Shown: positions 1 through 24,766 of the stretch, one piece after another | Layout of the letters: each line of letters starts with the position of its first letter | Position numbering within the stretch: the first letter of the stretch is position 1 | NCBI RefSeq assembly: GCF_003991155.1 | Contig: NZ_CP031293.1 | DNA from: Escherichia coli | Lineage (GTDB): Bacteria > Pseudomonadota > Gammaproteobacteria > Enterobacterales > Enterobacteriaceae | DNA length: 64,000 nucleotides | Direction: 5' to 3' (one strand) | Notes under the pieces: generated by a model | Told to the model about the DNA's origin: nothing | What the model saw: only the letters and a program-made list of their open reading frames with translations | The model's database searches: none | Position numbers and translations under genes: made by a program

Positions 1-414
1 TCGTCTTTTGGGATCAATGTCGTGATAAACGAGCGTACGATTTTTGAGCTTGACGCAGTGGCTGAGCTGGCGCAACAGTTTGGTGCTAGTGAATTGCTGT
101 TGTTGCCTCAGCAAGCAACTAATGCAGTCGCAAGTATGGACGAATTGGTCGGCCGAGAGCTTCAAAACTGGGTCTCTAGCTATAGAGGAAAGGTTCGACT
201 TGCAGTAAGTGAGGTGGGAGCGTCAGGGCTCCCCATATGTGACCCTCTTCCTAATGAAACAGGCCTTCAAGCCTACGCGCATATAGACGCTTCCGGGATA
301 TTGCGCACGAGTTCTTATTCAACCACAGGTATGGATATTGAAGAAACTGGTGTTATGTCCGCGCTTAAACGGCTTAGAAATACCTTAGAGATTAAACAAG
401 GGACACAATCATGA
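1..414 (+). CDS. hypothetical protein, 5'-partial (reading frame open to window edge)
   Basis: Frame is open from nt 1 (no upstream in-frame stop); stop overlaps the next start as ATGA at 411-414. Confidence 0.35.
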   Translation, partial: SSFGINVVINERTIFELDAVAELAQQFGASELLLLPQQATNAVASMDELVGRELQNWVSSYRGKVRLAVSEVGASGLPICDPLPNETGLQAYAHIDASGILRTSSYSTTGMDIEETGVMSALKRLRNTLEIKQGTQS

Positions 415-818
415 AAATTTGGAACGGATACGGATCTGAGCATTCGATGAACTTAGTTCTCATCGGAAAATTCAAGCAAGAGCAAGATGCAGTGAAGGTC
501 GAGAAGGATATTAAAACGCTCAGTACTCAGGCTGAGAAAGATGAATGTTACTCGATCCCTTTTGATGAGCCAGAGAATCAACGGTTTTCATATGAAATGC
601 TCTCATTACTATGCAGCCTAAAACTCCACACTTTAGGACCAACCGATCTTGGTCAATTGGTGTCAGATCATCATCTAGATCGCGAAGGCGATAGAATAAC
701 AATAACTACTGATGAGGCAGAGGTATCCGCGTTCGTGAAGCTGTTTGTCGAGGCTGGAGCAAAGGTCGAGATTTTCTCAGCGCATGACTATCCGTCCGAT
801 TCCAGCGATGCCAGTTGA
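411..818 (+). CDS. hypothetical small protein (135 aa), translationally coupled between flanking genes
   Basis: ATG overlaps upstream stop (ATGA); its own stop at 816-818 overlaps the TTG 815 of the large downstream ORF. No family recognised. Confidence 0.4.
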   Translation: MKIWNGYGSEHSMNLVLIGKFKQEQDAVKVEKDIKTLSTQAEKDECYSIPFDEPENQRFSYEMLSLLCSLKLHTLGPTDLGQLVSDHHLDREGDRITITTDEAEVSAFVKLFVEAGAKVEIFSAHDYPSDSSDAS

Positions 819-832
819 CAGAGGATGCATTG

Positions 833-3800
833 ATGCCTGAAGTAAATTGGAAAGTATTCAACGAACTGCCCGGTGCAGCAGATGTGAACTTCGAAAACCT
901 TTGCCGCGCTCTGGTACGCCGACACTATGGTCGTTTCGGTCGCTTTAAGCAACTCGCAAATCAGCCTGGGGTGGAGTTTCACCTCGAGCTGACGGAGCCT
1001 TGTGATCTCGGTGCGCCACCAGGTTGGATTGGTTGGCAATGCAAGTGGTATGAACTGGTGAATGGACAAGATTTGGGAGCCTCCCGCCGCAACAAGATCA
1101 TCGAAGGTATCGAAAAGACGCGTAAGCATGTCCCTGGAGTGACCAATTGGAAGCTTTGGACTCATCACACGTTAACAAAAGGTGATCAAGAGTGGTTTTT
1201 CGCGCTAGAGCAAGACCGCTTCCCAGAATTGAAGTTAGAACTGCTCACAGCTACGGATATCGAAGATCTTTTGGTCGGACCGGGAGCGCTTTTACGAGAA
1301 ACCTACTTTGGTGAACTGGTTCTAACTCCAGAGCTAATTGCTGAGCAGTATAAGCTTGCAGTGGCCCCATTTAAGAACCGCTACCAGCCAGATGTTCATG
1401 TAGCGGTGGGGGCTGAGGAGAATATATTCAGGCATCTGTGCAGCCAAAACGCATGGGAATCTCTGGAAGAACTCTCAAACGCTTTAAAAAAGAATCATAC
1501 GAGCATTGCTTCGGTTACTGAGCAACTCAAAACTGAGCTCAGGGCTGAAGTTGAATTACTCCTGGCCCGGGTTATTGGGTTGACTGAGTTTATTGATGGC
1601 TTACACGCGGCGCTCGGCAAAGGTGACTTTAACTCTGTATATCAAGCGTTGGTTTCAAATCCGCGTCAGCCGGTACGTTATGACAGGCTACTTTCGAAAT
1701 TGCGTGGAGCGCGCTTTGACGGGGCTCCGTTAACCGCTAATTTGGTTGCAGATATCCACGCGGTTTCGTCAGTTCTCCGCAGTCTGGAGCAATCGATTAG
1801 TGCTCGGGCGGTTGCTGTTCTTGCGGCGGCGGGGGAAGGTAAGTCTGAACTTGCAGTCAAGGTAACACAGCCAGAAGGGGCGTTCCTAGGGGGAATCCTC
1901 CTATTAGGCAAGAATCTTCATTCAGGCCAGGGGCTTGATGATCTCGTATCTGCCTTCAAGATTTCTGGGAGACCAGCAGAAAGTTTTGACCGCCTGATTG
2001 AGGCCGTAGATGCGGCAGGCCAGCGTGCAGGTAAACGCATACCTATTGTTATTGACGGTCTGAATGAGGCGGAAGATCCGAGAAATTGGAAGGATGAATT
2101 ATCCCGAGTGGATGAGCTTCTAAAGAATTTTCCTTATGTCTTGTTAGTTGTCACTCTTCGCAATGAATTCGCCCAGATGTGTCTGCCTGAGGGGTTTCCC
2201 CAAGTTGAACATAATGGGTTTCAGGAAGATCCGAAGACAGCATTTGACAAGTATTTTGAGTACTACAAGATCGATGCTACTGATGCGGATCTACCAGTCG
2301 AACTCTTGCAGCACCCCTTAACACTGAGAATTTTTTGCGAAGTAGCAAATTCTCCTCGTCAGCATATTGTCGGAGTGGAAGCATTGCCCCGTTCGCTTGC
2401 AAGCCTGTTCGAAGCTCACTTTAACAAGGTTGCAGCACGAGTCGCTGAGCTTTCACCGACGATGCATCGCATTTATCAAGATGACGTTCAGGATGCACTA
2501 CTAACGATCGCGGGTCTTCTTTGGGATAACAATGCGAGAAGTGTGGATTTTCAGGCTACACGGATGGCAGTTCGGGATATGGGGTGGGACGACAGTATTA
2601 TTCGTGCACTGGAGTCTGAAGGCATTCTCGTTCGGACTATTTCTCCAGAAGGTAGGCAAGGAGTTGCGTTTGCATACGACCTAATGGCCGGACATATGAT
2701 GGCGCGCAACCTGCTTATGAAGCCTGAACTGGTGCAATGGCTACAAAGCGATGAAGGGAACGCAAAATTTAAATCTCATGGACCTGATTCGCATACCTTC
2801 GCTTATGACGTATTACGGGCTCTGGTTGATCTGTATCCGCAACACTCTGGTAGGCGGCAGCTTTGGCAAGACTTGTCGGATGATATACTCGTTATGAACG
2901 CTCTGCTATTGACGACGCAATCGGATCCAAGATATATCGGGCGGGCTACTGTTGAACGATTTGCTCAAGCTATGCAGGAGTCGAAGCGGTTTGCACAACT
3001 TGCCTTCGAGAGACTACGGAGCACTAGGGCTGCGCTGGCACATCCGTTTGATATGAGCTTTTTGCATGATGTGCTAATGGCTATGTCCAACACTCAGCGC
3101 GATCTTTTTTGGTCAGAGTGGATTCGTCAGAAATCTGAACAAGTTAAAGACGACTTAAAATTCTTGTCGACGAGATGGAAATCGGGTCATCTGGATGAGC
3201 GTGAACTTCGAAGAGTTCGCTGGGTAATGTGGACACTGACGACGACATCCAGAGCTTTGCGGGATATGGCTACCAAAGCCCTGTATGAATTTGCCATCAG
3301 GCGGCCAGAAGAGTTTTTCCGGTTAGCGACGGAGACAATTGTAGTTTCAGACCCATATGTCCCCGAGCGAGTGTTCGCCGCAGCCTACGGTGCAGTCCTG
3401 ACCACTTGGTCGGATATCGATGCGGTAGAGTTACATGATGCGTTGCCACGGTTCGCTCGTGAGATTTACCAAACCATGTTTGCACCTGGCGCTACAGCCC
3501 CTACCTGGCATGCATTACATCAGCAGTACTGTTTGGGAATCATTGCCATTGCGAGGATGGTCGATCCAAATTGTTTTTCAGAGGACGAAGCTGTTTATCT
3601 TCTTCCGCCATTTAGCCATCTGCCTAACGTATTTGAAAGCATTCAACCGTACGATCCAGAGATGATTGGGCGAGCGGAGAGCGCAGCGATTCAAATGGAC
3701 TTTGGTAACTATACGATTGGTGGACTTATTCCAGACAGAGCGAACTACGATGACAGTAATCCGGAGTACCAACAGGTGTTGCAGGCCATTGTTTCTCGAA

Positions 3801-4891
3801 TGCTGATGCTTGGTTATGACCCTGAGCAGTTTGAAGCTGTTGATCGGCAAATGTACTCCGGTTCTCGTATGGGAGATGACAAGCACAAAATCGATCGATA
3901 TGGCAAAAAGTACGGCTGGATAGCTTACTTCGAGATGTGGGGGATACGATACGCGCAGGGCCTCCTTTCCGAAGAACGCAGTGCTCGCCCATCAGATGCT
4001 GATATCGATCCAACGTTTCCGCAAAAAGTAGAGAGTATTAGTTTGTCACTCCCAGTCTTATTTAACGATCCGTCTGTGGATGATGGTGACTGGATCGTGG
4101 GAGGCCCGCTACCTGACTACCGTAGCATCCTTGAGATTACGGAGGTTGATGGTCTGACGGGGCCATGGATCCTACTTGACGGTTTTGTTGAGCAAAATGC
4201 TACCTCGGATGACCGACAGATTTTCACTTTCCTGCGAGGAGTATTCGTAGATAGCCAAGAAGTTGACAATCTATGTAGGTTGTTCATTGATCTTGAATAT
4301 CCTGGCAATAGCGCCATCCCTGATGCTCCTGGCTACTATTACACCTATGCGGGTGAGATGCCTTTCCCGACTATTCCGGGGCTGCTAGTCGCTAATGAAC
4401 AAGAGGATGATAGCGATGAAAATTTGGTGTTCGCAGAAAGATGGTCAGGCAATGGCGTTGCGGTAGATATCACAGTGCAGGACTACAACTGGGAGAGCTA
4501 CCATAGCGTGGAGAACCAAAGCAGCGGTGCGAGCCTGCCCTCAAAGCAACTTTGTGAGGCTTTGAATCTCAGATACTGTGCAAACAAATGGGATTTGCAT
4601 GATGCTGCAGGTGTAGCGTCACTTTACCGCAAAATTGACGAAAATGGTTCGGACGTCAGTGGCTCTGTCAGCTATCTACGTCGTGATCTACTTGACCGCT
4701 ATTTGATGCAATCCGGTAAGGTATTGGTATGGCTTATGTGGGGAGAGCGTGGTTTTCATTACCGGTCCAACAAGACACGCAATTTGCACAGGTATTACGT
4801 GAATCACCAACATATTCACAAGCGTATTCATATCCATCAGATAGCTTCGAGTACTAGTAACCCAAATATTGCGGATGGAGTCGCTATATGA
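833..4891 (+). CDS. STAND-class P-loop NTPase, Avs/NLR-like, with N-terminal Mrr-like (PD-(D/E)xK, QxK variant) nuclease-type domain
   Basis: Walker A-like AAAGEGKSELA and Walker B-like IPIVIDGLNEAED (the hhhhDGLNE form typical of NACHT/STAND NTPases); N-terminal NFENLCRALV...GWQCKWY resembles the Mrr catalytic core; long C-terminal region. ORF track starts at TTG 815; first ATG is 833. Confidence 0.55.
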   Translation: MPEVNWKVFNELPGAADVNFENLCRALVRRHYGRFGRFKQLANQPGVEFHLELTEPCDLGAPPGWIGWQCKWYELVNGQDLGASRRNKIIEGIEKTRKHVPGVTNWKLWTHHTLTKGDQEWFFALEQDRFPELKLELLTATDIEDLLVGPGALLRETYFGELVLTPELIAEQYKLAVAPFKNRYQPDVHVAVGAEENIFRHLCSQNAWESLEELSNALKKNHTSIASVTEQLKTELRAEVELLLARVIGLTEFIDGLHAALGKGDFNSVYQALVSNPRQPVRYDRLLSKLRGARFDGAPLTANLVADIHAVSSVLRSLEQSISARAVAVLAAAGEGKSELAVKVTQPEGAFLGGILLLGKNLHSGQGLDDLVSAFKISGRPAESFDRLIEAVDAAGQRAGKRIPIVIDGLNEAEDPRNWKDELSRVDELLKNFPYVLLVVTLRNEFAQMCLPEGFPQVEHNGFQEDPKTAFDKYFEYYKIDATDADLPVELLQHPLTLRIFCEVANSPRQHIVGVEALPRSLASLFEAHFNKVAARVAELSPTMHRIYQDDVQDALLTIAGLLWDNNARSVDFQATRMAVRDMGWDDSIIRALESEGILVRTISPEGRQGVAFAYDLMAGHMMARNLLMKPELVQWLQSDEGNAKFKSHGPDSHTFAYDVLRALVDLYPQHSGRRQLWQDLSDDILVMNALLLTTQSDPRYIGRATVERFAQAMQESKRFAQLAFERLRSTRAALAHPFDMSFLHDVLMAMSNTQRDLFWSEWIRQKSEQVKDDLKFLSTRWKSGHLDERELRRVRWVMWTLTTTSRALRDMATKALYEFAIRRPEEFFRLATETIVVSDPYVPERVFAAAYGAVLTTWSDIDAVELHDALPRFAREIYQTMFAPGATAPTWHALHQQYCLGIIAIARMVDPNCFSEDEAVYLLPPFSHLPNVFESIQPYDPEMIGRAESAAIQMDFGNYTIGGLIPDRANYDDSNPEYQQVLQAIVSRMLMLGYDPEQFEAVDRQMYSGSRMGDDKHKIDRYGKKYGWIAYFEMWGIRYAQGLLSEERSARPSDADIDPTFPQKVESISLSLPVLFNDPSVDDGDWIVGGPLPDYRSILEITEVDGLTGPWILLDGFVEQNATSDDRQIFTFLRGVFVDSQEVDNLCRLFIDLEYPGNSAIPDAPGYYYTYAGEMPFPTIPGLLVANEQEDDSDENLVFAERWSGNGVAVDITVQDYNWESYHSVENQSSGASLPSKQLCEALNLRYCANKWDLHDAAGVASLYRKIDENGSDVSGSVSYLRRDLLDRYLMQSGKVLVWLMWGERGFHYRSNKTRNLHRYYVNHQHIHKRIHIHQIASSTSNPNIADGVAI

Positions 4892-5049
4892 GTTACGACT
4901 TCAGAAATCTTTCATCCGCAAACTTTGAGGATCTTGTGCGGGATCTTATCGAAAAAGAAGAAGGGTTCGCTTCGAAGCATTCTCTGTGGGGGCTGATAAT
5001 GATATTGATGGCCGACACGCACATGCTGGAGGGAATGTCAGTTTATAGG
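4888..5049 (+). pseudogene. 53-codon remnant beginning a Mrr-like nuclease domain, ATGA-coupled to the STAND gene stop
   Basis: ATG 4888 overlaps the STAND stop (4889-4891); MSYDFRNLSSANFEDLVRDLIEKEEGF parallels the N-terminal motif of the upstream STAND protein, then terminates early; followed by about 1.2 kb AT-rich ORF-free DNA. Confidence 0.3.
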
Positions 5050-6264
5050 TAAAACCTTATGAAGGGGCGTCGTTTAGTATACTGATGGCTATTATGAAGT
5101 GTGAGTGGTTGTCTAAAGATAAGCTAGCCCTCACACGCTGTATCAAGCGACCTCTTGTTAGCTTACTCCAGCTAGCAAGAGTAAACTTTCCCCACTCATA
5201 GGGCTATGTTTGAAGTCCGAGTCGGAAATTGGGGGGCAGAAGACATAAAAGGTCTCCTTAAGAAGTCTTCTTGTCTGTACAAAAACTCTTATTTTGACAA
5301 AGAGCATTGTAGTTATTAACAGGCTGATTAATAAATTTAAAAATAAGTCGTCAGGAACACCAGATTAGCTACCCAAATTCTCATGCCGTGGAAGCGGAAG
5401 AAAAATACTCCCCTGAATATCTTCATATCGGATATACATAATAAGCTTGAGGTTGTATATTTGAAGAATTGAGTAGCCAGAGCCTTGTTGACATAAAGCG
5501 ACACGAACAACATGTTACTTAAAATATCACGAGTATATATTCAGACTTGTTTATGTTGCGACATGGATTCTACAGGCAGCTGGCTGAAACAGTGAGTCAG
5601 AAAAATTTACAGGAGCGCCATAGTCATTAATGGATATCCGTAATATGCTGATGCAAAAGGGTAAGGAGTTTGCCGGTAATCTGCGGTGTTAGACGACAAT
5701 TACAAAACGACCTTAGGCGTCAATTACCGCTGAAAAAAGTGACAGATCACTTTCTATAAAATGCTGCCGTATGACCGACAGATTTATTCCGCTTTATAGC
5801 CATGACTGTTCGGTGCTCACTTCGCTGCGCTCCGCCTCAGTCCTGCCTAAAAAGCGTTGCAGGTTAGTTTGTATCGGCCTAATGAAAGGCTGTTTTAGCG
5901 AAGCGTAAATGTGACATCTTATCTGGTCTAATCTCTTTGCGATAATTGACGCAAAAGCATGGGCTGTAATTGTCACGCAATACTGCGGCAAGTCTCATGA
6001 TGATGCCTCTGACAGGGATCTCCGTAGCCATTAACTGGTCGATTGGTAAGCTAAAACAAAAAAATTGAATTTGTCAAGACAGCCATAATGACTACCATTT
6101 TCGTCTCTGCTTTTCCATCCTGAAATTAATGGCTATCATATTCGCAATAGACAACATCATCTTACTTGCACTCAACTATAACTAATGCTGAGTGCAAGAA
6201 ACGGGGATTATATCCCCTATCAAGGACCTGTTGAAATATTAGTCTGGAATTTCGAGGCTGTAAT

Positions 6265-9763: not shown

Positions 9764-11013
<1,250 letters not shown>

Positions 11014-11385: not shown

Positions 11386-11790
11386 AACATAATTCTACAG
11401 ATGGCACAGTATCCCCCTGATACAGGTAAAAACTTATTTCACGGAAACCGGCATAGCAAACTGGATGACACAATACCGGGCAAAACGATAAGTATGGTTA
11501 CTATATGAAACGGAATACTCCCGTTTCGTATTATTTTTTTTGACTGATATCAACGGGACGAATTAACTGACAGGATATTTACTGGAAAGTGTCTGCATAT
11601 TGCTCAATATATTTTTAATGGAAATGTATTCTCCATTAATATTTATGGTGTGATTGTGTTTCCCTGTGTGTCAGCTTCCGCTAAACCCCTTGCTGCAAAT
11701 TACCGATCATTGTATTGTTGCGCCGCGCCTGCAAAATCAGGCGTCGGGATTGGAACCCTGATAAGTGTTACAGGCGACATATAGCGCATT

Positions 11791-12426
11791 TTGCGTCTTT
11801 TTTATGTCGTGCGTCTGGCTGCATCTCAATGGTGGGCTGGACGGGGGCGTCGCAAGACGCGCCGGTTTCCTGTAACACCGGTAGTTCCAACCCCGTTCAG
11901 TTCACCACCAATGAGATTGGAACCTCTGGTGGTGGAATTACCACCCGTTACAGGAGGCTATCCTATGGTTATCATCCTTTCCCCTGACTGCGACTTACTT
12001 TCCATCCCCTTCAGTGCCACCACGGATTTCACCGATCTGGCCGACTACTGCGATCGCTTCGCTGAAACCCTGATCGAATGCCACGATCCGGCGCTGAAAA
12101 TGGCGCTTTATGGCAGGATCAACGCCAGCCTTGCGCTGCTGCGTCCCTCGTTGGGCGAGCCGATCCCGCTGCACCTGATCGACCGTTTCATTGTGGACAC
12201 GCTTCCCGACGTTTCACCGCGCTTTGAACCCGGCGCAGGGCTGCTCTGTGACTACTGTCTGGCGCTGACGCAGGTATTAAGCGGGCGGTCGCTGCTGCCG
12301 GAAACCGAAACCACACTGACCGGGTTGCTGTGCGAACTGGTCTGGTATTTTGCCGCCGACCTTAAAGCGCCGCAGTGGCTGCGCACCGCTGATGGCTTAC
12401 AGGTTATTGACGGGGGGACGGTATGA
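11791..12426 (+). CDS. hypothetical protein, translationally coupled to the downstream Ner-like gene
   Basis: GC-rich ORF whose stop overlaps the Ner-like start (ATGA at 12423-12426); true start uncertain. Confidence 0.35.
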   Translation: MRLFYVVRLAASQWWAGRGRRKTRRFPVTPVVPTPFSSPPMRLEPLVVELPPVTGGYPMVIILSPDCDLLSIPFSATTDFTDLADYCDRFAETLIECHDPALKMALYGRINASLALLRPSLGEPIPLHLIDRFIVDTLPDVSPRFEPGAGLLCDYCLALTQVLSGRSLLPETETTLTGLLCELVWYFAADLKAPQWLRTADGLQVIDGGTV

Positions 12427-12796: not shown

Positions 12797-13099
12797 TTGA
12801 TAACAGTCACAACCGGAGTCGTTTTTATGCACATGTTTAATCCACCCCATCCGGGTGACGTCCTTCGCGATTATCTGGACGGCGTGAGCATCACGCAGGC
12901 CGCTTCCCGGCTTCAGGTATCGCGCTCGCGGTTATCCCGTATCCTCAATGGACATGCACCAGTGACGGCTGATATGGCGCTACGTCTGGCGGCGCTGCTG
13001 AATACCCGCGCTGAACTGTGGACGGGGATGCAGTCTGAGTATGGCCTCTGGCAGGCGTCACAAAAACCACGACCCGTTATCCGGTCATTGCGGGGTTAA
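12797..13099 (+). CDS. HigA-family HTH (XRE-type) antitoxin-like protein, no adjacent HigB-like toxin ORF
   Basis: NPPHPGDVLRDYLDGVSITQAASRLQVSRSRLSRILNGHAPVTADMALRLAALLNT...ELW is the HigA/VapI pattern; likely start at internal Met (12827 or 12833). Confidence 0.7.
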   Translation: MITVTTGVVFMHMFNPPHPGDVLRDYLDGVSITQAASRLQVSRSRLSRILNGHAPVTADMALRLAALLNTRAELWTGMQSEYGLWQASQKPRPVIRSLRG

Positions 13100-13186
13100 C
13101 TCAGCATTTTACATTCACAAATACACGATAAAATCAGGGGGAAAACCAATATCCAGAAAAATGAGTTTCCCCTTTCTGCGCCAGAA

Positions 13187-15521
13187 ATAACGGTGTAATC
13201 TCCCTCCTGCATTGTCGCCTTCGGGCACCCTTTGGCTTCATGGTCTGCAAGAAGCCCCTGATTTATCAGGATGACCAGCCCTTACTACCGGTACGACCTC
13301 CGCAATACCGGAACGCGAAAGCGTTTGAGGCTAAGAGTACATACACCCGAACGGCTTCATCGTCATTGCTTAACGGCAACAGTCTTCACCGGCTGAACGG
13401 CTTTTCTTTGCCGGAATTTCCCGACTGCCCCATACCCAGCTGAAAACAGCGCCCTTTACATGACGGGCTGCGGCCTGCATTGCCGTCAGGCTTTGCTGCC
13501 GCGTGACCGTCATTCTGCACCAGAAACGCAACGTTTACCCCCTGCACCAGATGAGGCGTCACTTTGGTCGCGCCAGCGAAAAAGCAAAGTGACGCCGTAC
13601 AACATACCGCCGCAAGCCGCGCCAGTTCTGGCCTGCGTCCTGTTTCCGCCGTCTGACATGCCCTTTGGGGCGCTGTCAGTCCAGAGTAAAGGAGAAAAAG
13701 ATCGATACCGAGGGGGGCACGACGCCCCGGAGATACCCCTGCTTCGTCAGGCAGTCTGTACCGCGTACAGCCTGAAACTCCCTAAACCTCAACAATCAGC
13801 CACTCCGGCGTGAAGGTATCGTTCTGGCGCAGCCAAAAAGCACACGCCGGAGACTGTTTGTTTTTTGTTGCAGGGGGTAGTTATGAGCAAATTAAGCAGT
13901 GAAATGAAGGCGCTGGCGAAAAAAGCAGGCGGTAGTTTCAGAACGGTGGACTACCGTATCCATGCCACGAAGCGGTTCAGTCAGCATTTACGCGAACTGA
14001 ATATTCAGATCCAGCGGGTGGAGCAGATCAAAGTTCGCCATATCGAATGCTATATTCAGGAGCGGCTGGAGCAGGATATTGGCCTGCGCACGCTGCAAAA
14101 CGAAATGGCGGCGCTGCGGGCCGTGCTGAGGCTGGCGGGACGCCGGCAGGTGGTGGAGCATCCGCGCCTGACCAATAAGGCGCTGGGGCTGTCAGGTGCT
14201 TCGCGCAACGGCACGCGTCGCGCCATCACGCCGGAACATTATGAAAAAGTGATGGAGAACGCCCGCGCACAGGATGCGGGGCTGGCGGCAGCGGTGGAGA
14301 TCGCGCGACTGATGGGATTACGCTCGCAGGAGGCGGTACAGAGTTCACAGTCGCTGAAAACGTGGCTGAAAGCCATTTCCCGCGGCGAAACCCGGCTGAA
14401 AGTGGTGTTTGGCACCAAAGGCGGGCGTCCGCGTTACACGACGCTCCTGGACGCTGGCGCAGTCAGGAAGGCGGTGGAAAACGCATTACCGATCGCCAGA
14501 CAGCGCAATGGCAGGCTGATCGACAAGCCAGACCTTAAAACGGCGCTGGAGAGCTGGCACAAACAGGCCATTAAGGCGGGGCTGAAAGGGGAATTTTCCC
14601 CGCACTCGCTGCGTTATGCGTGGGCGCAGGACGCGATCCGCCATTATCTGGCGCAGGGATTCAGCGAAAAGGAATCGCTGGCGCTGACGGCGACGGATCT
14701 GGGTCATGGCGACGGTCGCGGCCGCTGGGTGAAACAGGTGTACGGCTACCGCTGGAAGGAGGAATAACGGCTTTCATGAATGGCGCAAAATAGTACGTTA
14801 CTGCGTAACGACAGCGATTTATCGTACCCTCTGTACCGGATCTGGCGCAGGGGGCGAGCGGGTTTGTATTGTGAAAATATCGTTACAGCATGACGAATAA
14901 ATATCAATAGCTCAGATTTTCCTGCTGAACCAATGTAGCTCGCCGGAATATTATAGTGATTACCCGGTAATCACTCGAAACGATCCCGATTAATAGCTGG
15001 TGTTTCAATCGTTTTACCGATATTACAGGTACAGGGTCGGGAAATTTTAAAATGTAAACTCACCGAGGCATCACATTAATTCTGGCGCAGGATTATATCT
15101 GAATAATTCTCTCTGTGTTTTCCTGCATCCTGTGACATATATTGCATGGTCACAGAATGTCTCATGATTTTATAAAAAATGCTGCGACGGTTTTTGACAT
15201 CATAACCTGCTGCATATAGATTAATAATTTTCGGTGCTTCATGTTATTTTTTTGCGCTCTGTGATCGTTATCTGGTGGTGAAAATACAATCTGGTGCAGA
15301 CTGTCATGGTGCATTTCTGAATAAACTGGTTGCGCCAGAAAGGGAAAGGGCCATAAAGGTTAAGGGGCGATAAGGGTAACAGCGCCTGACCGGAAAGGGC
15401 CGAAAACCAAAGAGCCAGAAACTGGCGCAGTCCTGAATGTGTGAAGTGGCGAGACGCTGGCGCAGATAACCGATCTTCCGGGGCTGGTGCAGATTATTTC
15501 GTCTCTGTATATCTGGTGCAG
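13187..15521. repeat. dispersed array of at least 10 copies of the decamer TCTGG(C/T)GCAG
   Basis: Copies at 13187-13195 (inverted), 13823-13832, 14841-14850, 15081-15090, 15289-15298, 15330-15338 (inverted, degenerate), 15421-15430, 15456-15465, 15483-15492, 15512-15521; mostly in non-coding DNA flanking the integrase-family gene. Confidence 0.7.
13883..14767 (+). CDS. tyrosine-recombinase (phage integrase) family protein, short form
   Basis: C-terminal FSPHSLRYAWAQDAIRHYL...GRWVKQVYGY has the HxxR...H...Y pattern of tyrosine recombinase catalytic domains; AGGGGG Shine-Dalgarno precedes ATG 13883. Confidence 0.5.
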   Translation: MSKLSSEMKALAKKAGGSFRTVDYRIHATKRFSQHLRELNIQIQRVEQIKVRHIECYIQERLEQDIGLRTLQNEMAALRAVLRLAGRRQVVEHPRLTNKALGLSGASRNGTRRAITPEHYEKVMENARAQDAGLAAAVEIARLMGLRSQEAVQSSQSLKTWLKAISRGETRLKVVFGTKGGRPRYTTLLDAGAVRKAVENALPIARQRNGRLIDKPDLKTALESWHKQAIKAGLKGEFSPHSLRYAWAQDAIRHYLAQGFSEKESLALTATDLGHGDGRGRWVKQVYGYRWKEE

Positions 15522-15579
15522 TTATAATATGTATCAGGGAAGGCTGTCCGGTATTTTATGACGCCTCTTTTAGAGTATA

Positions 15580-15654
15580 TTAATTGGTATTTCCGTGAAA
15601 ATATCGCTTATTGATAGTTTTTCATCTTCCGTGATTAACGCGTTAATCACGGAA
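15580..15654. promoter_or_regulatory. two adjacent palindromes (candidate operator or hairpin sites)
   Basis: Perfect 30-bp palindrome CTTCCGTGATTAACG/CGTTAATCACGGAAG, then an inverted repeat TACCTATCAA(N11)TTGATAGGTA. Confidence 0.4.
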
Positions 15655-15776
15655 GACTGTTACCTATCAAAAAAAGATATATTGATAGGTAACGGTCAAA
15701 TTTTATTTGGGGCCAAATAATTGTAGATACTTTCCGATTGGTAATAAAAAAGAACAACGGCAATACCTCTCAATAC

Positions 15777-15814
15777 AAAAAAGCAGATCCCGGCCAATCA
15801 GGATCTGCTTTTCC
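15777..15814 (-). terminator. intrinsic terminator downstream of the P4-type integrase reading frame
   Basis: Inverted repeat AAAAGCAGATCC...GGATCTGCTTTT followed on the minus strand by a T-run. Confidence 0.55.
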
Positions 15815-15841
15815 ATTTTAATGATTTCAGCTATTTATGAC

Positions 15842-17104
15842 TCAGGCTGCCTTATGCTGCCGCGCATAAATATACGGCGCGACATACCCCTCGCGGCACA
15901 CATCCAGATAATCCGACCACCACTGCATCATGGCCTTTCTGGCCTCCAGATGCTCCGCTTTATGCACATAGGCCGCCCGCACGCTGTTACGCTCCTAGTG
16001 GCTCATTTGCCGTTCCACCGTATCGCGTGACCAGAGATCCGACTCTACCAGGGCGCTACAGGCCATTGCGCGAAGTCCATGTCCGCACACATCGGTTTTC
16101 GTATCATACCCCATCAGGCGCAGCGCCCGGTTGGTTGTGTTTTCGCTCATTGGCTTGTACGGGTTATGGTCGCCGGGGAATACCAGATCCAGATGGCCGG
16201 AAAGCTCCTGTATCTGTTTCAGAATGGCAATCGCCTGGCGGGAGAGTGGCACGATATGCGGACTACGCATTTTTGCGCCACGCCCCGAAAACCGTACTTT
16301 GTCGATGGCCTCGCGGGTGGCGGGGATGGTCCAGATTTTGTGCCTGAAATCAATCTCGCTCCAGCGGGCGAAACGCAGTTCGCTGGAACGGATGAACAGG
16401 TGCAGTGTCAGCACCACCGCCAGCCGGGTTAACTCCCGGCCCTGCCGGTAATCGCCAATACGATCGAGCAATTCAGGCAACCGCTCCAGCGGTAAAGCGG
16501 GATAGTGATTCTTGACGGGAGAGGCGACTACACCATCCAGATGCTGCGCCGGGTTGCTTTCGGTCAGTCCCTGCTGAACGGCATAGCGCATGATGTTGCT
16601 GAGTTGCTGCCGGGTTCGGGACGCGACTTCCAGAAAGCCCTTATCCTCAATAACCCGCAGCAAAGCCGTGAAATCCTGCGTTTTAAGCGCAGCAACGGGC
16701 AGATGACCAATCGCCGGGAAGATATGGTTTTCCATACTGGCGAGAATACGGGCGGCATAATCAGCCGACCATTTTTTGTTGGTTTTGTGCCAGGCCAGCG
16801 CCACCGCCTTAAAGCACTTTTCAGGGGAGCAGGCGGATTTCTCTGCCATACGCTGTTGCGCCGGGTTGATATTCTGCGCCAGTAGCTTGCGGATACCGTC
16901 GCGCTGTTGCCTGGCTTCTGCCAATGAGACAAGCGGATATGCGCCAAGACTGACTCTGGATTCTTTTCCGTTGAAACGATATTTGAGATACCAGATGCGT
17001 GAACCACCCGGATTGACGAGCAGATACAGACCCTGAGAGTCGGAGAGTTTTACCGGACGGGAAGAAGACTTTAACTTGCGGATTTTAGAATCGTTTAAAG
17101 ACAT
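15842..17104 (-). pseudogene. P4-type tyrosine integrase interrupted by an in-frame amber codon (TAG at 15995-15997)
   Basis: N-terminus MSLNDSKIRKLK...GLYLLVNPGGSRIWYLKYRFNGKESRVSLGAYP is P4-integrase-like. Translation stops after ...VERQMSH, but the same frame continues ERNSVRAAYVHKAEHLEARKAMMQWWSDYLD... to a stop at 15842-15844; the catalytic-Tyr region lies after the amber. Confidence 0.75.
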
Positions 17105-17265
17105 TTGGGGGTCACTCCAGAATCGAACCAAACTGACCCCAGATCTGACCACCAAATTATCCCGATGCGGAGAGAAAATTAGATACGCACCGGGAAGGAT
17201 TTTCACGCTAACTTACTGAATCGTAAACAAATAGAGACGCATAGATAAGCATGAAAACTTGAATT

Positions 17266-23234: not shown

Positions 23235-23649
23235 ACCTTAAGTGCAGCCCTGGTGCCTGTCGGCACTGCGATGAAAGAACTAAATGATGCCGCCATACCC
23301 TGATCCTTTCAGGGTGGTAGGGGTATAAAGACGCGCCTGTACTCTACCGGACGCTTCCGGGCAACCCACTTCCCACCGAAGTTGTTGGTATTGACTGACT
23401 GGCTGGTCTTCTGGCTTAGCGTCATCCTCTCCCGACCTTCCCAATCTCGCGATCAGTGGCATTTTCGGGTTTGTCAGCATTACAGCAGCGGGGGCTGCGA
23501 GGGATTTTCACCCTCTTCCCAGGCACAAATGTGCCACACCTGTCAGCGTATGTTATGAGCTGATTTCACTTTTCCCATAACAGGGAAATAACGTTAATTA
23601 TTCATTCCAGAGTTTATTTAAACCGTCCTCTTTTTTTGGGGCATTTACT

Positions 23650-24564: not shown

Positions 24565-24766
24565 GATAAAACCTCCCAGTTAATTTATTGTTATAGCAAA
24601 ACAATTGTTTTACATTTAATCTTCACATCATCCTTGATGATTTACTGACGAGAAGCACAAAGGACAATAACAAAAGCCTCCGTGAAGCGGGAGACTTTTT
24701 AATAAGTTCGGAAAGCAGATCACAAACAGTAAAAAAATAAACGTTTATAACTGCCAGATTATTTCA

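Follow-up and report, generated by a model that had tools for sequence, protein, structure and literature searches.

The relaxases MpsA, TcpM and MobK have been grouped as MOB_M, a class that is abundant in chromosomes, usually beside an integrase gene, and that occurs with MPF_G or alone in mobilisable islands (bioRxiv 10.64898/2026.01.13.699239). For MpsA, an atypical relaxase encoded by Salmonella genomic island 1 (SGI1), the Burrus laboratory has taken the Pfam family PF12835 as an 'INT_DTR_like' signature (PMC10484663), and the mpsA gene is preceded by a 125-bp GC-rich origin of transfer (oriT) and by the essential small RNA sgm-sRNA (PMC6414798, PMC9299015). Only recently have MOB_M relaxases come to be seen as the most common chromosomal relaxases of well-studied bacteria, and their origins of transfer, nick sites and accessory needs are still little charted. 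MrpR (YopR) of SPbeta-like phages is a monomeric protein of recombinase fold that reads a short element, SPBRE, repeated across its own mobile element (PMC10516654), and the name of the RNA motif EFASI stands, in Rfam, for 'Enterobacteriaceae, Frequently Around STAXI and Integrases'. Here, a locus is described in a 64-kb window of the Escherichia coli chromosome (the whole stretch analysed, from contig NZ_CP031293.1 of assembly GCF_003991155.1) in which a decamer, TCTGGYGCAG, recurs with strict polarity around and within the gene for a 294-amino acid (aa) tyrosine-recombinase-like protein.

A polar array of decamers around and within one gene

A sequence-only reading of this DNA had called the density of the decamer far above chance, and counting bears this out. 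The exact decamer matches nine times in the window, all at 13176-15521, whereas the mean over dinucleotide-preserving shuffles is 0.32 and none of 100 shuffles reaches nine. The nine matches fall in a 2.5-kb module, against none in the remaining 61.5 kb of the window and one in 52 kb of unrelated E. coli DNA, confirming that the enrichment is local. Chance and a genome-wide repeat family are thus both ruled out as explanations, by the shuffles and by counts over some 110 kb of other E. coli DNA. For the 9-mer CTGGYGCAG, 13 of the 15 matches in the window lie at 13176-15521, and a search allowing at most one mismatch to the decamer finds 14 copies there, five of them beyond the exact ones. The earlier figure of at least ten copies holds if the first base is allowed to vary (A, G or T, never C), but not for the exact decamer; nor does the array begin at 13187, as had been given, since the first copy occupies 13176-13185, 11 nucleotides earlier. 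The gene and the copies of the decamer are arranged as follows.

13883..14767, plus strand: 294-aa tyrosine-recombinase-like gene, with PF12834 and PF12835; homologue of the SGI1 relaxase MpsA
13176..13185, minus strand: decamer TCTGGCGCAG, the outermost upstream copy
13515..13524, minus strand: decamer TCTGGTGCAG, directly 3' of hairpin H1 (see below); invariant in 6 of 6 aligned loci
13542..13551, minus strand: decamer TCTGGTGCAG, 3 nucleotides left of hairpin H2
13823..13832, plus strand: decamer TCTGGCGCAG, 51 nucleotides before the start codon and within the loop of hairpin H4; the polarity switch point
14453..14462, plus strand: decamer variant GCTGGCGCAG, within the 294-aa coding sequence, frame 1, coding for A-G-A-V
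14647..14656, plus strand: decamer TCTGGCGCAG, within the 294-aa coding sequence, coding for Y-L-A-Q
14841..14850, plus strand: decamer TCTGGCGCAG, 74 nucleotides past the stop codon
15081..15090, plus strand: decamer TCTGGCGCAG, within an Escherichia-specific AT-rich stretch
15290..15299, plus strand: decamer TCTGGTGCAG, forming an inverted pair with the copy at 15330
15330..15339, minus strand: decamer variant TCTGGCGCAA, the sole conserved minus-strand copy of the downstream cluster
15421..15430, plus strand: decamer variant ACTGGCGCAG, from the one-mismatch search
15456..15465, plus strand: decamer variant GCTGGCGCAG, from the one-mismatch search
15483..15492, plus strand: decamer variant GCTGGTGCAG, from the one-mismatch search
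15512..15521, plus strand: decamer TCTGGTGCAG, the final copy

Up to position 13551 every copy is on the minus strand, and from 13823 on every copy is on the plus strand, the lone exception being that at 15330. Both strands are therefore used, as the sequence-only reading had noted, but the orientations are not mixed. That reading had also placed the copies in non-coding DNA, which is true of most of them but not of those at 14453 and 14647, and it had reported a dense cluster upstream of the P4-type integrase gene. The cluster exists, and comprises six copies in 232 bp (15290-15521), but as the integrase gene (15995-17206) is on the minus strand, these copies are situated past its 3' end and not upstream of it in the sense of transcription.

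The same arrangement is found in related loci. A comparison set of 80 loci was drawn from one genome per species, together with loci of E. coli, Salmonella, Citrobacter and Klebsiella, and a locus was counted as bearing an array if the core CTGGYGCA occurred at least six times within 1.2 kb on either side of the gene. Arrays of 6-18 core copies are present in 35 loci, in Escherichia, Salmonella, Citrobacter, Klebsiella, Brenneria and other genera, whose recombinase-like proteins are 57-100% identical to the query. The core reaches a density of 3.4 per kb within the array modules, compared with 0.24 per kb elsewhere in these loci. A position matrix carries information at D-CTGGYGCA-G only, with random sequence on either side; C never precedes the core, and at the Y position non-coding copies have C or T about equally often. 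The positions of the sites turn over between lineages, with number and orientation kept. To the left of position -200 relative to the gene, 106 copies are minus and two are plus, whereas to the right of -100, 258 are plus and 14 are minus, most of these 14 representing one conserved copy in the downstream cluster. Overall, 364 of 380 copies have the canonical orientation, and within the coding sequence the count is 147 plus to 0 minus.

The copies within the gene have left an imprint on the protein. Genes of the array loci encode 109 LAQ tripeptides, where 8.7 are expected from composition (an excess of about 12-fold), at varying positions, and in 91 of the 109 the tripeptide is spelled CTGGCGCAG, a spelling expected in 27% from the codon usage of the same genes. 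The excess and the skewed spelling together indicate that the motif is selected at the DNA level within the gene. A coding artefact is ruled out by these codon and tripeptide statistics, and the reverse motif, which could equally be encoded (as LRQ or LHQ), never occurs. The LAQ excess is a clear case of a cis-acting DNA signal reshaping the protein of its own host gene. A lone CTGGCGCAG at 16874 on the minus strand, within the integrase gene, also codes for LAQ and looks like chance.

The decamer is conserved across genera while its flanks change, and is tied to the 294-aa gene, in agreement with the earlier suggestion that the copies form a site set for a sequence-specific DNA-binding protein. 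The motif is invariant in all array loci, and so shows no covariation with the protein. The strict polarity, the copies within the coding sequence, the presence of EFASI and the kinship of the gene with MpsA and MOB_M had not been noticed in the sequence-only reading. The parts of the module are known in kind (a homologue of MOB_M-type relaxases, EFASI, an island inserted at a tRNA gene), whereas the array, its polarity and its imprint on the coding sequence appear to be new, as no description of any of the three was found in a literature search of limited coverage.

A relaxase-like gene and a candidate origin of transfer

The 294-aa protein matches PF12835 (Integrase_1; E = 1.1e-58) and PF12834 (Phage_int_SAM_2; E = 9.4e-38), and it matches the generic Phage_integrase family weakly. 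MpsA of an SGI1-like locus likewise matches PF12835 (E = 2.1e-10). For this comparison, the SGI1-like mobilisation locus was retrieved from a metagenome by means of the 21-nt core of a published primer, which yielded two loci; a 32-nt oriT string built from primers had no match in the E. coli and plasmid collections, and a 26-nt string had none in metagenomes. By BLASTP, the 294-aa protein and MpsA give a weak match (E = 1e-5, 27% identity over 169 aa); the motifs GTKGGRxR, GLRxEE and TxQN occur in both. Alignment of the family profile to the MpsA sequence with hhalign gives 96% probability and E = 2e-9. Among 33 homologues including MpsA, the catalytic set R147, K179, H241, R244 and H275 is invariant, and Y287 is nearly so.

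An AlphaFold model of the protein (predicted local distance difference test, pLDDT, 89.6) has the two-domain fold of recombinases, with a core-binding and a catalytic domain, and its best structural matches are IntI, XerA, lambda Int, the Int of Tn1549, Cre, XerH and the recombinase-fold repressor SroF. A homologue is also encoded by a Pantoea plasmid that is typed as MPF_G and has no recognised relaxase, which agrees with the pairing of MOB_M with MPF_G (bioRxiv 10.64898/2026.01.13.699239). A phage origin of the gene is ruled out, as it is essentially absent from 50,697 phage records. On these comparisons, the gene most likely encodes an atypical conjugative relaxase of the MpsA/MOB_M kind, not an ordinary integrase.

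The intact catalytic residues, and the occurrence of copies in both orientations, would also suit a role of the decamers as crossover sites at which the recombinase-like protein inverts or deletes DNA, as in a shufflon or the fim switch. However, no two copies form a core with a spacer of 6-8 bp, and no inverted segment is seen in the 35 loci, where orientation is canonical in all but 16 of the 380 copies. An orientation that is invariant across genera is incompatible with frequent inversion, and crossover sites are thus a most improbable explanation.

Upstream of the gene lies a non-coding core composed of hairpins and an RNA motif, and a further conserved block is found downstream.

13461..13512, plus strand: H1, an imperfect hairpin, nearly invariant in six loci of four genera
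13555..13596, plus strand: H2, hairpin GGCGTCAC...GTGACGCC, candidate origin-of-transfer inverted repeat
13653..13679, plus strand: H3, hairpin (CTGACA...TGTCAG)
13697..13825, plus strand: EFASI RNA motif (Rfam RF02957), scoring 99.1 bits where the gathering threshold is 51.2
13805..13850, plus strand: H4, hairpin (CCGGCGTG...CACGCCGG), whose loop holds the first plus-strand decamer and whose stem covaries between subfamilies
15371..15401, plus strand: conserved downstream block TAAGGGTAACAGCGCCTGACCGGAAAGGGCC, purine-rich, with repeated AAGGG units

The approximately 420 bp upstream of the gene show 73% column identity among Escherichia, Salmonella, Citrobacter and Klebsiella, and form successive hairpins in which some of the changes are compensatory. 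The most widespread element of this core is the inverted repeat of H2, GCGTCAC-N(10-40)-GTGACGC, which precedes the gene in 67 of 73 related loci and likewise accompanies the homologues on Pantoea, Klebsiella and Burkholderia plasmids. The 420-bp region has no sequence similarity to the SGI1 oriT. The order of an inverted-repeat region, a structured RNA motif and the gene parallels that of SGI1, and it is for this reason that 13460-13850 is taken as a candidate origin of transfer, possibly with a helper RNA. A small minus-strand open reading frame annotated as hypothetical at 13386-13562 is rejected as a gene; the sequence is conserved as a structured non-coding element, and one locus carries a frame-breaking indel. 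The downstream block TAAGGGTAACAGCGCCTGACCGGAAAGGGCC is nearly invariant across E. coli, Salmonella, Citrobacter, Klebsiella and Cedecea and is bracketed, within 15330-15440, by an inverted decamer pair; it has no match in Rfam.

For the decamers themselves, we tentatively favour, at somewhat short of an even chance, a reading in which they are putative half-sites of the relaxase-like protein that flank the putative origin of transfer. Among protein-coding genes, the recombinase-like gene alone accompanies the array in each of the 35 loci. Two islands, one of E. coli at tRNA-Asp (L005) and one of Entomohabitans (L072), keep 15-17 copies and lack both the Ner-like and the 153-aa genes that neighbour the array in the window (see below), the second lacking HigA as well, and their integrases are 33-36% identical to that of the window. 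An asymmetric site of 9-10 bp fits the half-site of one monomer, and MrpR provides the case of a recombinase-fold protein that reads a dispersed repeat. These points support the reading alongside the local enrichment, conservation and polarity of the array, the DNA-level selection within the gene, the recombinase fold, the kinship with MpsA, the SGI1-like layout and the homologue on the MPF_G Pantoea plasmid.

In the proposed mechanism, each D-CTGGYGCA-G copy would be an individual half-site, clamped by one 294-aa monomer. The copies would make up two mirror-image arrays, with minus-strand copies to the left of the core and plus-strand copies running from the 5' leader through the gene and beyond, such that the bound monomers would all face the core in the same sense. 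Monomers so oriented could build a large relaxosome-like nucleoprotein complex, which would probably also autoregulate the 294-aa gene, and the core of about 420 bp (H1-H3, EFASI and H4) would most likely be the origin of transfer, possibly with its helper RNA. If the decamers are indeed docking sites of the relaxase, they define how the island is recognised for transfer, and could be used to predict or block that transfer.

A number of observations weigh against this proposal. Neighbouring copies lie 18, 27, 30-31, 35, 62 bp and other distances apart, without helical phasing, which is unusual for cooperative operator or iteron arrays. A complex on at least 14 sites spread over 2.3 kb, coding sequence included, would be far larger than any relaxosome described to our knowledge. 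The 153-aa gene occurs in 17 of 23 array loci versus 0 of 41 array-free loci, and its product thus keeps some claim to be the reader. More distant homologues of the 294-aa protein (53-61% identical, in Yersinia pestis, Pectobacterium, Xenorhabdus, Photorhabdus and on plasmids) keep EFASI and the hairpins without the array, and there is no repeated decamer in the mobilisation region of SGI1. Relaxase function as such would therefore need no array, which is better seen as a derived feature of one enterobacterial subfamily; a search of the array-free relatives found no alternative repeated k-mer. In the array-free subfamily, moreover, the decamer-like sequence CTCTGGCGCA...TGCGCCAGAG is the covarying stem of H4, and may thus not be a protein site there. 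Finally, the loci are phylogenetically related and their counts are not independent events, though the LAQ effect is very large.

The array-free relatives differ in a second respect. They often carry STAXI (RF01728), which stands 0.5-0.9 kb ahead of the gene and thus a few hundred bp ahead of EFASI; in the Pantoea plasmid STAXI is found downstream of the gene as well. In contrast, STAXI is absent from all array-bearing loci tested, and from the window even at E <= 10. For instance, Y. pestis NCTC5923 (L066) has an array-free homologue at 5001-5861 with STAXI, the GCGTCAC hairpin and EFASI, and the 10-bp inverted repeat CTCTGGCGCA...TGCGCCAGAG stands just before the gene. Both EFASI and STAXI may be parts of MOB_M origins of transfer. 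The decamers are not repeats derived from STAXI, whose consensus is dissimilar, and pairing of the decamers with the EFASI RNA is ruled out, as EFASI holds no complement of the decamer.

Polarity of this kind is suggestive of signals for a moving machine. The decamers might direct, stop or modify a helicase or translocase, a replication fork moving to or from the core, a coupling protein or RNA polymerase relative to the oriT/EFASI core, in the manner of KOPS and FtsK, Chi and RecBCD, or Ter and Tus, all of which depend on orientation. The near-absolute orientation rule with its sharp switch point is in keeping with this, as are the lack of helical phasing, the free turnover of site positions, and the tolerance of and selection for sites on one strand within the coding sequence. 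GC skew also changes sign near 13750, but this switch is confounded by the orientation of the gene and by the motif itself. The conserved module encodes no candidate motor, the motif is unlike KOPS and E. coli Chi (GCTGGTGG), and the right array contains one conserved minus-strand copy. No promoter for a leftward transcript was found, leaving unsupported, for the left array, the idea that the copies always lie on the sense strand. On balance a polar signal seems unlikely, and equally unlikely is the notion attached to it, that in the array subfamily the polar arrays functionally replace the STAXI of their relatives. If it were true, EFASI and STAXI, so far orphan motifs, would gain from the array a concrete role, open to testing, in the processing of DNA for conjugation.

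The module offers several handles on MOB_M relaxases, including a compact and cleanly mutable motif, a clear orientation rule and, lying between the two arrays, a conserved hairpin with the orphan motif EFASI.

The island and its other candidate readers

The window is a stretch of E. coli chromosome with 100% identity to several complete genomes, and at least 80% of 13100-15990 is carried by about 327 of 5,426 complete E. coli genomes. The array region forms the integrase-proximal end of an island at a tRNA-Asn gene, beside yeeO. The island begins with a set of genes for a radical S-adenosylmethionine (SAM) protein, a DUF6375 protein and a 1358-aa protein, followed by Rhs fragments, an IS3 element and a DUF2169 remnant. 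These are succeeded by an isrK/C4 RNA pair with an ash gene, and then by a 153-aa gene, a Ner/SfsB-like helix-turn-helix (HTH) gene and an orphan HigA gene. Next comes the 294-aa gene, then a non-coding stretch of about 1.2 kb, the P4-type integrase gene and finally the tRNA gene.

11725-11912, plus strand: isrK and C4 antisense-RNA pair (P4/P1-type immunity RNAs), adjoining the ash gene
12827-13099, plus strand: HigA-family antitoxin gene, without an adjacent HigB toxin gene; only in Escherichia versions of the module
15626-15655: perfect 30-bp palindrome CTTCCGTGATTAACGCGTTAATCACGGAAG, in the AT-rich DNA that separates the array from the integrase 3' end
15995-17206, minus strand: P4-type integrase gene, beside tRNA-Asn, with an Arm-DNA-bind_3 domain

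The isrK/C4 pair and the ash gene look like a P4-type immunity region, and in many genera the set of isrK/C4, ash, 153-aa and Ner/SfsB-like genes accompanies the relaxase-like gene. Such company raises the question of another reader, in that the decamers could be operators of the Ner/SfsB-like HTH_35 protein, of the 153-aa protein or of a host regulator. The Ner-like gene accompanies the recombinase-like gene in most loci, but it is equally common in array-free loci (31 of 41). The 153-aa gene is restricted to loci with arrays, yet its product matches nothing in Pfam, NCBIfam or PHROG and contains no DNA-binding domain that could be recognised, and the islands L005 and L072 keep full arrays with neither gene. 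As for a host regulator, the T-variant of the decamer contains the NtrC half-site TGGTGCA, but NtrC sites are dyads, whereas the decamers are isolated half-sites, half of them with C at the variable position. A reader other than the relaxase-like protein is accordingly judged improbable.

The integrase is a further candidate. The sequence-only reading had compared the array to the arm sites of P4-type integrases, and arm-type sites do measure about 10 bp, lack regular spacing and face opposite ways on the two arms of attP. The integrase has an arm-binding domain (Arm-DNA-bind_3), and the downstream cluster tends to occur when the integrase gene lies downstream. As accessory sites that organise an integration or excision complex they are nevertheless poorly placed. 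About 1.7 kb, including the entire integrase gene, separates the tRNA-Asn core from the nearest copy; no copy lies in the interval from the start of the integrase gene to the tRNA, nor at the far end of the island. In addition, the same motif is found with integrases that are 33-36% identical. In several genomes whose sequence here matches the window exactly, the integrase gene is annotated as a pseudogene containing an internal stop, and this copy of the island can therefore probably no longer excise on its own. Arm sites are therefore very unlikely, and that part of the earlier reading is not upheld.

The same reading had likened the array to iterons or an origin. An excised island might replicate from the array as a vegetative origin, the decamers serving as iterons for the recombinase-like protein acting as a nickase or for an initiator encoded by a helper, and comparable origins are the P4 ori and crr octamers that flank the alpha gene and the iterons beside rep in Staphylococcus aureus pathogenicity islands. 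Sites lie on both sides of the candidate initiator gene and within it, and the cumulative GC skew is lowest at the core. The island also has isrK and C4 RNAs in an immunity region like that of P4, and in E. coli AT-rich stretches adjoin the downstream cluster. The AT-rich stretch is specific to Escherichia, however, and is absent from the Salmonella, Citrobacter and Klebsiella versions. A search of 13100-16000 for host-factor sites found one DnaA box and no IHF consensus, and neither an AT-rich unwinding element nor a set of DnaA boxes is conserved with the array. Spacing is irregular and unphased, placing the copies outside the iteron type, and array-free homologues presumably work without arrays. 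We also know of no replication initiator with a recombinase fold. An origin of replication is retained as a rival explanation, but a rather improbable one.

The 30-bp palindrome is followed by a second inverted repeat, TTACCTATCAA...TTGATAGGTAA, and an exact search with its central 22 bp matches only loci identical to the window. Three further Rfam matches in the window have no relation to the array, namely isrC, a cobalamin riboswitch that precedes the cob operon, and STnc230 (9832-9954, 23384-23558 and 24625-24708). The cargo at 1-4891, with the radical SAM gene, the DUF6375 gene and the gene for the 1358-aa hypothetical protein, may be an anti-phage defence system; at the cargo position, sister islands carry TIR/Thoeris-like, AbiE and Upx-like genes (L002, 11497-16891). 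L005 and L072 are type VI secretion islands with the relaxase-like gene and the array at the integrase end, which suggests that they are present or former mobilisable elements of the same island family. Across Enterobacterales, islands with this module carry type VI secretion, Rhs and anti-phage defence cargo.

Comparison with known systems

The closest counterpart is the SGI1 mobilisation module (mpsA-mpsB, sgm-sRNA and oriT) and the MOB_M class to which it belongs. The 294-aa protein shares PF12835 and homology with MpsA and retains the catalytic residues, the gene is immediately preceded by a GC-rich non-coding region with many inverted repeats and by a structured RNA motif, and in both cases an integrative element carries the gene beside a separate integrase. 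There are also differences. The core-binding-like N-terminal domain is fused in the 294-aa protein, whereas in SGI1 it corresponds to a separate protein, MpsB; identity to MpsA is only 27% over 169 aa; and the SGI1 oriT spans 125 bp, in a mobilisation region free of repeated decamers.

The position of EFASI conforms to its Rfam description, in which the motif stands upstream of an 'integrase'. The decamers, in contrast, belong to neither EFASI nor STAXI, and the array subfamily is without STAXI.

Arrays of short repeats read by one protein have several precedents. The TnpI motifs of the Tn4430 and Tn5401 resolution sites, the arm-type sites of lambda and the ori and crr octamers of P4 are all repeats of 8-14 bp that occur in both orientations and flank either a functional core or the gene encoding the protein that binds them. 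These arrays comprise 4-16 sites within about 0.1-0.3 kb or in two compact blocks, and none is known to us to cross a coding sequence with strict mirror polarity. The decamer array differs from them in having neither a crossover core nor origin features conserved in the family.

A last parallel is with MrpR and SroF of SPbeta-like phages, SroF being among the structural matches of the 294-aa model. MrpR has lost the catalytic Arg and His, however, whereas the 294-aa protein keeps all of its catalytic residues. The sites differ as well: SPBRE is a 15-bp element found at about nine sites, at promoters over a 134-kb phage, whereas the decamers form a dense, polar array at a single gene.

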